Of a DNA stretch of 64,000 bases, positions 41,565-42,242 are shown one piece after another. Origin of the DNA: a phage. The position numbers were made by a program, and so were the translations under genes. The notes beneath the pieces are model-generated. The model did not search any database, was not told where the DNA came from, and saw only the letters and a list, made by a program, of their open reading frames with translations. The first letter of the stretch is position 1, and each line of letters begins with the position of its first letter. The DNA lies in assembly GCA_036253055.1 (NCBI GenBank), contig GCA_036253055.1_4124.1. The stretch is one strand, 5' to 3'.

Positions 41565-41921
41565 CTAGGATAAAATCATTATAGGATATTCACAGTTAAT
41601 CAGTACTTCAAAACCAAAACTTTCATACCATTCTTTAAGATTAAACTCGTTATCTTCTCCCGTATCGCATTCTAAGATGATACAATCTGAATCATCGGCG
41701 GCATCAATAAAGGCATTCATTAATTCAGTACCTTCACCGTTACCGCGATTATCGGGATCAACATAAAGAGAATCAATAAACGCTACACGATCATAATCAA
41801 GATCCGGTGCAACAATGCCACGTTTAACAAACCAGTACTGCAATTGTGCTACTTTGCCTTGTACTTGATAGCCAGTGATCTCACCATTGTCTGTAGTACG
41901 CGTGATATGTTGTATACCCAT
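41565..41921 (-). CDS. GNAT-family N-acetyltransferase-like protein (118 aa)
   Basis: Motif A VDPDNRGNGEGTELMNAFI; motif B WYESFGFEV; SD GAGGA; promoter TTGACA-N16-TATAAT. Confidence 0.55.
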   Translation of the reverse strand: MGIQHITRTTDNGEITGYQVQGKVAQLQYWFVKRGIVAPDLDYDRVAFIDSLYVDPDNRGNGEGTELMNAFIDAADDSDCIILECDTGEDNEFNLKEWYESFGFEVLINCEYPIMILS

Positions 41922-41984
41922 GATTTCAATCCTCAGTTAAGATATAAAATATTATACACTAACTAACAGCACTGTCAATACTTT

Positions 41985-42242
41985 TTATCTCATAGATCTA
42001 TGCCAACAATTACGGGGATTGCGTTTGAATATGCTATCATGATCAGCCTGGCAAGTGATGCAGTACTTACACCCCTTAACGGCCAGGCGGCGATTCTCAG
42101 GGATTTTATCGCCGCAGTCGAGGCAATGTATCAGTGATTCTATTTGTGCGTTAATTTGCGTTCTAGCGTGGTTTACAGCGGCCTGAATCACTGCGTTAAT
42201 CTCGTCTTGCTCGGCCCCGTCATTCGCGAATCCAACAGCCAT
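41985..42242 (-). CDS. TraR/DksA-family C4 zinc-finger protein (85 aa)
   Basis: CLDCGDKIPENRR...(17)...CITCQ (CxxC-N17-CxxC with GxxIP); SD TGAGGT. Confidence 0.6.
   Translation of the reverse strand: MAVGFANDGAEQDEINAVIQAAVNHARTQINAQIESLIHCLDCGDKIPENRRLAVKGCKYCITCQADHDSIFKRNPRNCWHRSMR

Follow-up and report, generated by a model that had tools for sequence, protein, structure and literature searches.

A window of 64,000 nucleotides, the whole stretch of phage DNA analysed here, carries on its minus strand an adjacent pair of genes that are probably two unrelated early accessory genes, separately exchangeable and sitting in a hyperplastic region packed with promoters. The first encodes a minimal GNAT acetyltransferase of 118 amino acids (41565..41921; PF00583, PF13508), the second a C4 zinc-finger protein of 85 amino acids from the YbiI-like branch of the DksA/TraR superfamily (41985..42242; PF01258, phrog_54, PDB and NCBIfam). 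In the reading that we favour, the GNAT would be made from its own perfect consensus promoter, the zinc finger would be produced as part of a two-gene operon, and the two would be neighbours by chance, through cassette shuffling at promoter sequences, and not because of a functional linkage. As found, the pair matters little, both members being routine accessory genes that are already labelled.

The window comes from a jumbo coliphage of the Asteriusvirus group (121Q/PBECO4-like). A nucleotide search with the 3 kb around the gene pair matched 74 phage records. Escherichia phage 121Q, an Asteriusvirus of 348 kb, comes first with 97.7% identity; the rest of the matching Asteriusvirus genomes are 91–93% identical over the same 3 kb. 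Gene 294 of 121Q is annotated as a DksA-like zinc-finger protein and gene 295 as a GNAT family N-acetyltransferase, and both names are already public in the records of 121Q, JP4, E9.1, fEgEco12 and others. In the record of vB_Ec-M-J the region falls within an annotated direct terminal repeat of 21.5 kb. The list of open reading frames confirms both genes on the minus strand at the positions given by the first-pass annotation, and the family names that it had proposed (GNAT and DksA/TraR C4 zinc finger) are borne out by above-threshold Pfam scores in a profile search. Across 7–8 Asteriusvirus genomes the variable sites are distributed over the three codon positions as 5/3/32 in the GNAT gene and 4/11/29 in the zinc-finger gene, with zero indels in either, so both are real genes under purifying selection. 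A literature search found no experiments on either protein or any close homolog.

The zinc finger reads C40-L-D-C43-G..I47-P48..R51 and, after a spacing of 17 residues between the cysteine pairs, C61-x-x-C64, which is the motif claimed for it, and the C-x2-C-x17-C-x2-C pattern is conserved, all four cysteines being invariant in 40 close homologs of 59–93% identity. The protein scores 44 bits against PF01258 (cut-off 24.9, E 2.2e-11) and matches phrog_54 with an E value of 7e-19. Among solved structures the best match is YbiI of E. coli (2KGO; E 4e-12), to which it is 45% identical across residues 1–69, while TraR as found in RNA polymerase complexes lies farther away in a PDB sequence search (E 1e-5). 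It reaches 79.5 bits with the YbiI equivalog model (NF008243 / PRK11019), over residues 1–71 only and below the 96-bit cut-off, and it also falls below the cut-offs of both TraR models (50.2 against 59.7 bits for TIGR02419, 30.4 against 108 for PRK13715). These sequence comparisons place the protein in the YbiI-like branch of the DksA/TraR superfamily, nearer to YbiI than to TraR. The family is common to Asteriusvirus jumbo phages, other jumbo phages and T4-like phages at 60–74% identity, with close homologs in the T4-like phages Moon, MHG19, fHe-Yen9-01 and vB_EcoM_RZ.

With YbiI the phage protein shares the N-terminal M-A-x-G-[FW]-A-x-D, the spacing of the four cysteines and IPxxRR. It differs from YbiI in that the phage family replaces the YbiI C-terminus with a tail of its own, FKRxPRNCWHRSMR, which is invariant in the 40 homologs (including R77-N-C-W-H-R82) and which, with its invariant C79-W80-H81, shows the strongest conservation within the family. 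The N-terminus is likewise invariant as MAVG...G9.E11-Q12.E14, the full tip reading M-A-V-G-F-A-K-D8-G-A-E11-Q, and so are R51 and R52, which align with R48 and R49 of TraR. The structural model, of only moderate confidence (pLDDT 71), consists of a 25-residue helix (residues 8–32), the zinc knuckle, a short helix (62–68) and a low-confidence, unstructured tail containing proline. The top five Foldseek matches of this model are YbiI, TraR twice, an A. tumefaciens DksA-family protein and E. coli DksA.

Several features are held in common with TraR of the F plasmid and Orf73 of lambda (5W1S, 6N57; PMC9239242), which are also small proteins with one N-terminal helix and a C4 knuckle. The conserved P48-E-x-R51-R52 corresponds to P45-E-A-R48-R49 of TraR, and like TraR and its phage homologs the protein is encoded on a mobile element whose host is a proteobacterium. 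R48 of TraR binds the rim helices of RNA polymerase, R49 contacts beta'Si3 and the C-terminal helix contacts beta Si1, and five phage TraR homologs are reported to bind RNA polymerase (PMC9239242). The phage protein differs from TraR at both ends: it has an invariant N-terminal extension of 7 residues, a tip that reads D-G-A-E-Q-x where TraR has DxxDxA, and a C-terminal helix that is predicted to be shortened and is followed by the tail with its proline. The DxxDxA motif, which is treated as critical for TraR (PMC9239242), is absent from the tip of the zinc finger and its 40 homologs. The profile alignment between the zinc finger and TraR spans only residues 21–69 and leaves the tip and the C-terminal helix outside, so the equivalence of these two parts to those of TraR is not demonstrable. 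As the tip and tail differ from those of the characterised TraR proteins, a TraR-like function should not be assumed.

Binding in the secondary channel is nevertheless plausible and, in our view, the most likely mechanism of the zinc finger. The N-terminal helix would insert into the secondary channel of the host RNA polymerase, the zinc knuckle and the conserved P48-E-x-R51-R52 would anchor the protein there, and initiation would be shifted off short-lived host promoters, such as those of rRNA and ribosomal proteins, towards phage consensus promoters with A+T-rich discriminators. The protein could instead be of the YbiI type with a role other than that of a TraR-like RNA polymerase regulator, a minority possibility that we take seriously. 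It might then bind a partner through the invariant N-terminal MAVGFAKDGAEQ and the C-terminal FKRxPRNCWHRSMR, or it might be a plug of the secondary channel with Gre-like D-x-x-E chemistry. The ranking of YbiI above TraR among the matches, the lack of DxxDxA, the failure of tip and tail to align to TraR and the exceptional conservation of the tail around C79-W80-H81 all speak for such a role, as do the published observations that C4 proteins in which DxxDxA and the C-terminal helix are missing do not behave as DksA does (PMC9239242) and that YbiI is suspected of a role in iron metabolism (PMC2613031). Against this stand the conservation of the globular domain and of the PExRR contact residues, an architecture of helix and zinc knuckle like that of TraR in its RNA polymerase complexes, and the reported rescue of a dksA-null strain by overexpressed YbiI (PMC2613031, where the data are not shown). 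Our literature search found no papers on DksA-like proteins of T4-like or jumbo phages.

Regulation of the host polymerase remains our preferred role for the zinc finger, which is preceded by a second, smaller gene. This is an open reading frame of 48 amino acids with a TTG start (42242..42388, minus strand; phrog_38664, E 9e-34), which is gene 293 of 121Q and forms the first cistron. Its TAA stop overlaps the ATG of the zinc-finger gene as TAATG with a shared A, and promoter P1 lies upstream of it (42539..42567, minus strand; TTGACA-17-CATAAT with TG, 11/12, conserved in 8 genomes), which together make the zinc finger the second cistron. We envisage that the host sigma-70 RNA polymerase would read the operon from P1 and that translation of the zinc finger would be coupled to that of the small protein through the TAATG overlap. 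That the zinc finger follows a conserved but inconsistently annotated gene is of modest added value.

The arrangement changes two claims of the first-pass annotation. A consensus promoter for each gene had been proposed, which holds for the GNAT, whose promoter is perfect, but not for the zinc finger, which has none adjoining it, the nearest strong one lying upstream of the 48 amino acid open reading frame. Similarly, the leader of about 330 nt assigned to the zinc finger does contain the cluster of GATC sites described there, but about half of it is coding. The coding status of the small open reading frame has moderate support from its pattern of conservation, in which 41 variable sites fall as 11/8/22 by codon position, with no indels and the frame kept. 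In PBECO4-type genomes it starts with GTG and the first two thirds have strongly diverged in DNA; nevertheless its frame, length and a recognisable protein pattern are retained. The ribosome-binding site is weak. The last 49 nt are 98% invariant, and signals for the zinc-finger gene are probably also carried there.

Annotation of this small gene varies between records: 121Q, Turkey5 and WPEC5 list it, SHEFM2K has a truncated version, vB_Ec-M-J and UB omit it, and the zinc-finger gene itself is left unannotated in UB and PBECO4. In VR5 the zinc finger follows a T4 MobD.3-like protein; a relationship of the 48 amino acid product to that protein was considered and rejected, there being no similarity.

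The GNAT gene is preceded by a perfect promoter (41951..41978, minus strand; TTGACA-16-TATAAT, 12/12), located 30 nt upstream of the start codon and inside the gap of 63 nt between the two genes, and 7 related genomes have the same two hexamers. A GAGG ribosome-binding site follows at 41934–41931 (minus strand). No terminator-like site was found between the zinc finger and the GNAT, so read-through from the former into the latter is possible. The window contains 14 perfect sigma-70 promoters, all on the minus (coding) strand, against an expectation of 0.19. It is sound to read this pattern as expression early in infection, driven by sigma-70 consensus promoters; PA5oct, a distant relative, relies on host RNA polymerase (PMC7318152).

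Immediately after P1 comes a segment of 60 nt (42479..42538, minus strand) in which 58/60 positions are invariant across 8 genomes, the coding DNA differing far more. Inside this segment lies the box CTAACCCATAGGGTGCACAAATGTA (42514–42490), and the window has 5 copies of the box CTARCCCAYAGGGTGCAYAARTGTA (35347, 37268, 40135, 42490 and 44154), always on the minus strand and against 0 expected. The arrangement of the box, with TGCAyAA, 11–12 nt and TAnnnT, recalls a middle promoter of the T4 MotA type. An Rfam search of 41400–42800 with E values up to 1 gave no match, and folding of the leader RNA returned a z-score of −0.69, with no significant structure.

Next in the leader is the GATC cluster, which overlaps a degenerate copy of a second promoter (42396..42478, minus strand, with TATAAT at 42429–42424) that was identified by alignment to two paralogous elements. 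The cluster comprises 5 GATC sites in 71 bp (42406–42476; TGATCA, GGATCA and CGATCA) against one per 454 bp in the window, where the sequence is under-represented (141 found, 194 expected), and relatives keep 4–5 of the sites. A regulation related to Dam and SeqA is possible. We also considered the cluster as a possible P1-type pac or origin site; it lies about 12 kb inside the terminal repeat annotated in the related record.

Seen together, these parts of the leader belong to a composite element of about 200 nt, of which the minus strand has three paralogous copies (42385–42600, 40000–40245 and 44030–44270). Each copy is ordered as an A-rich tract, promoter 1, the conserved box, AAAAAGTACT and promoter 2 (TTGCAA-16-TATAAT); in the zinc-finger copy the −35 of promoter 2 is replaced by sequence that contains GATC. 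The −35 of promoter 1 lies within a hairpin with a 12-bp stem in two of the three elements, and the element at 40 kb occupies a gap of about 320 nt without an annotated gene in 121Q. The "class-2 element" that had been noted in the zinc-finger leader is probably this repeated composite element.

A further set of repeats consists of stem-loops of the form GGGGAGAA-N-TTCTCCCC at 41501–41521, 40879–40899, 43612–43632 and 44639–44659. They lie just downstream of −10 boxes, in minus-strand 5' leaders, and are part of repeated promoter cassettes (family D2). The sequence AGTACTGTATAAT is common to the spacers of many promoters.

The GNAT protein carries the two motifs described for it, R59-G-N-G-E-G64 and W98-YESFGFEV106, and scores above threshold against PF00583 (40 bits, cut-off 20.7) and PF13508 (37.4 bits, cut-off 27), the Pfam match being limited to model positions 53–116, the C-terminal half. 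An exhaustive search gave 290 relatives, 39 of them with E values of 1e-10 or below; most are 120–140 amino acids long, and a small number form part of large proteins that also contain a PARP, ParB_N, amidoligase or DUF5661 domain. In an alignment of 50 members the motifs are conserved, with G64 and Y99 invariant and R59 and G62 at least 90% conserved, and D86, E89, W98 and F104 also reach at least 90%. Judged from R59-x-x-G62-x-G64 and the invariant Y99, the acetyl-CoA site is intact. The structural model is confident (pLDDT 89.8) and has the core and fold of a GNAT. The full N-terminal arm (beta1-alpha1-alpha2, the acceptor site) is absent, since only 41 residues precede beta4, and these form two strands (a beta-hairpin) and one helix. 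This arm of hairpin and single helix sets the phage protein apart from the minimal GNATs of B. cereus (1Y9W) and A. tumefaciens (2G3A) and from AcrVA5 (6IUF), to which it is only 13–23% identical.

It is plausible that the GNAT acetylates a host protein, and it would do so early in infection. Because its nearest sequence matches in the PDB are small-molecule acetyltransferases (phosphinothricin and aminoglycoside), a small-molecule substrate is possible as well. A more specific proposal casts the GNAT as an AcrVA5-type anti-defence enzyme, which would acetylate and inactivate a host immune protein and leave the transcription and translation machinery alone; we consider this unlikely. GNAT homologs of 52–54% identity adjoin ArdA, CcdA and SocA/Panacea genes in another element, a neighbourhood that fits an accessory or conflict-related role without proving it. 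A PADLOC search with the GNAT, the zinc finger and the 48 amino acid open reading frame returned 0 hits.

The homologs in that other element are 123 amino acids long and were found in Logan contigs (L002–L008, 3.1–93 kb), on the strand opposite to most neighbouring genes. The element also carries an AAA_23/SMC-like ATPase and a TROVE (Ro-like) protein. Some of the 123 amino acid homologs, but not others, are followed by a 68 amino acid gene, which suggested the toxin of a toxin-antitoxin pair; the idea was rejected, and the GNAT of the window has no such gene after it.

Comparison with other phages indicates how the pair may have come together. In PBECO4 the DNA of the 48 amino acid open reading frame and of the zinc finger is present and the GNAT cassette is missing; the homology breaks inside the GNAT promoter, after TTGACAGTACT, and resumes at the next promoter. 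The GNAT cassette recurs, with 87% of its nucleotides identical, in Shigella phage SF1-1 (146 kb, a record without classification), where the homology runs from the −10 hexamer to just past the GNAT stop codon and there is no zinc finger nearby. The zinc finger is also found in the T4-like phage VR5 (in the mobD-rI region) and in Munch, a jumbo phage, in both cases without an adjacent GNAT. The GNAT illustrates cleanly how a cassette bounded by promoters is exchanged between unrelated coliphages.

Shuffling of cassettes made of promoters and stem-loops has been described for the hyperplastic regions of T4-type phages (PMC2839356). The window resembles these PeSLs (PMC2839356, PMC4122927) in having strong sigma-70-like promoters between small non-essential early genes, stem-loops that accompany many of the promoters, and gain or loss breakpoints at promoters. 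The breaks in PBECO4 and SF1-1 both fall in a strong sigma-70 promoter, as at a border of the PeSL type. The differences are that the phages here belong to the Asteriusvirus group and that the stem-loop after the GNAT has no T-run. Another gene of the region, encoding a DUF7247 protein of 107 amino acids (40946–41269, minus strand), is absent from 121Q and present in UB and PBECO4, and is another presence/absence cassette among close relatives.

Independent distributions of this kind tell against the first-pass proposal that the GNAT and the zinc finger, together with a kinase-like gene, make up a single coordinated module for takeover of host transcription and translation, which we regard as very improbable. 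All three genes are on one strand in a region of early sigma-70 promoters, the kinase-like protein has kinase motifs by direct reading and weak Pkinase matches, and phage kinases, acetyltransferases (Rac) and secondary-channel binders are known takeover routes (PMC7824862). However, the genes occur independently in other phages and each has a separate promoter, the kinase matches are below the Pfam thresholds, and the kinase-like gene is 3.5 kb from the pair, with about a dozen unrelated small genes in between.

Two separately exchangeable accessory genes remain the reading that we prefer over such a module. A bolder version would make the zinc fingers a distinct class of secondary-channel factors, whose tip MAVGFAKD-G-A-E-Q, with its Gre-like D-x-x-E, and tail act unlike TraR and DksA, and would make the GNAT an anti-defence cassette, bounded by promoters, that moves between unrelated coliphages; this combination seems to us decidedly doubtful.

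The kinase-like protein itself has 213 amino acids (37362–38003, minus strand). By eye it contains a glycine-rich loop GAGSSRIV, VIKV, RDIRKQN and DYG; its Pkinase matches have sub-threshold E values of 0.002–0.003, and it also matches phrog_4301, a family of unknown function. From these motifs it is possibly a minimal early protein kinase. Elsewhere in the window, four consecutive open reading frames of 376–433 amino acids occupy 58191–62941 on the plus strand, the first of them with RCC1-like repeats (PF25390, E 1e-27).
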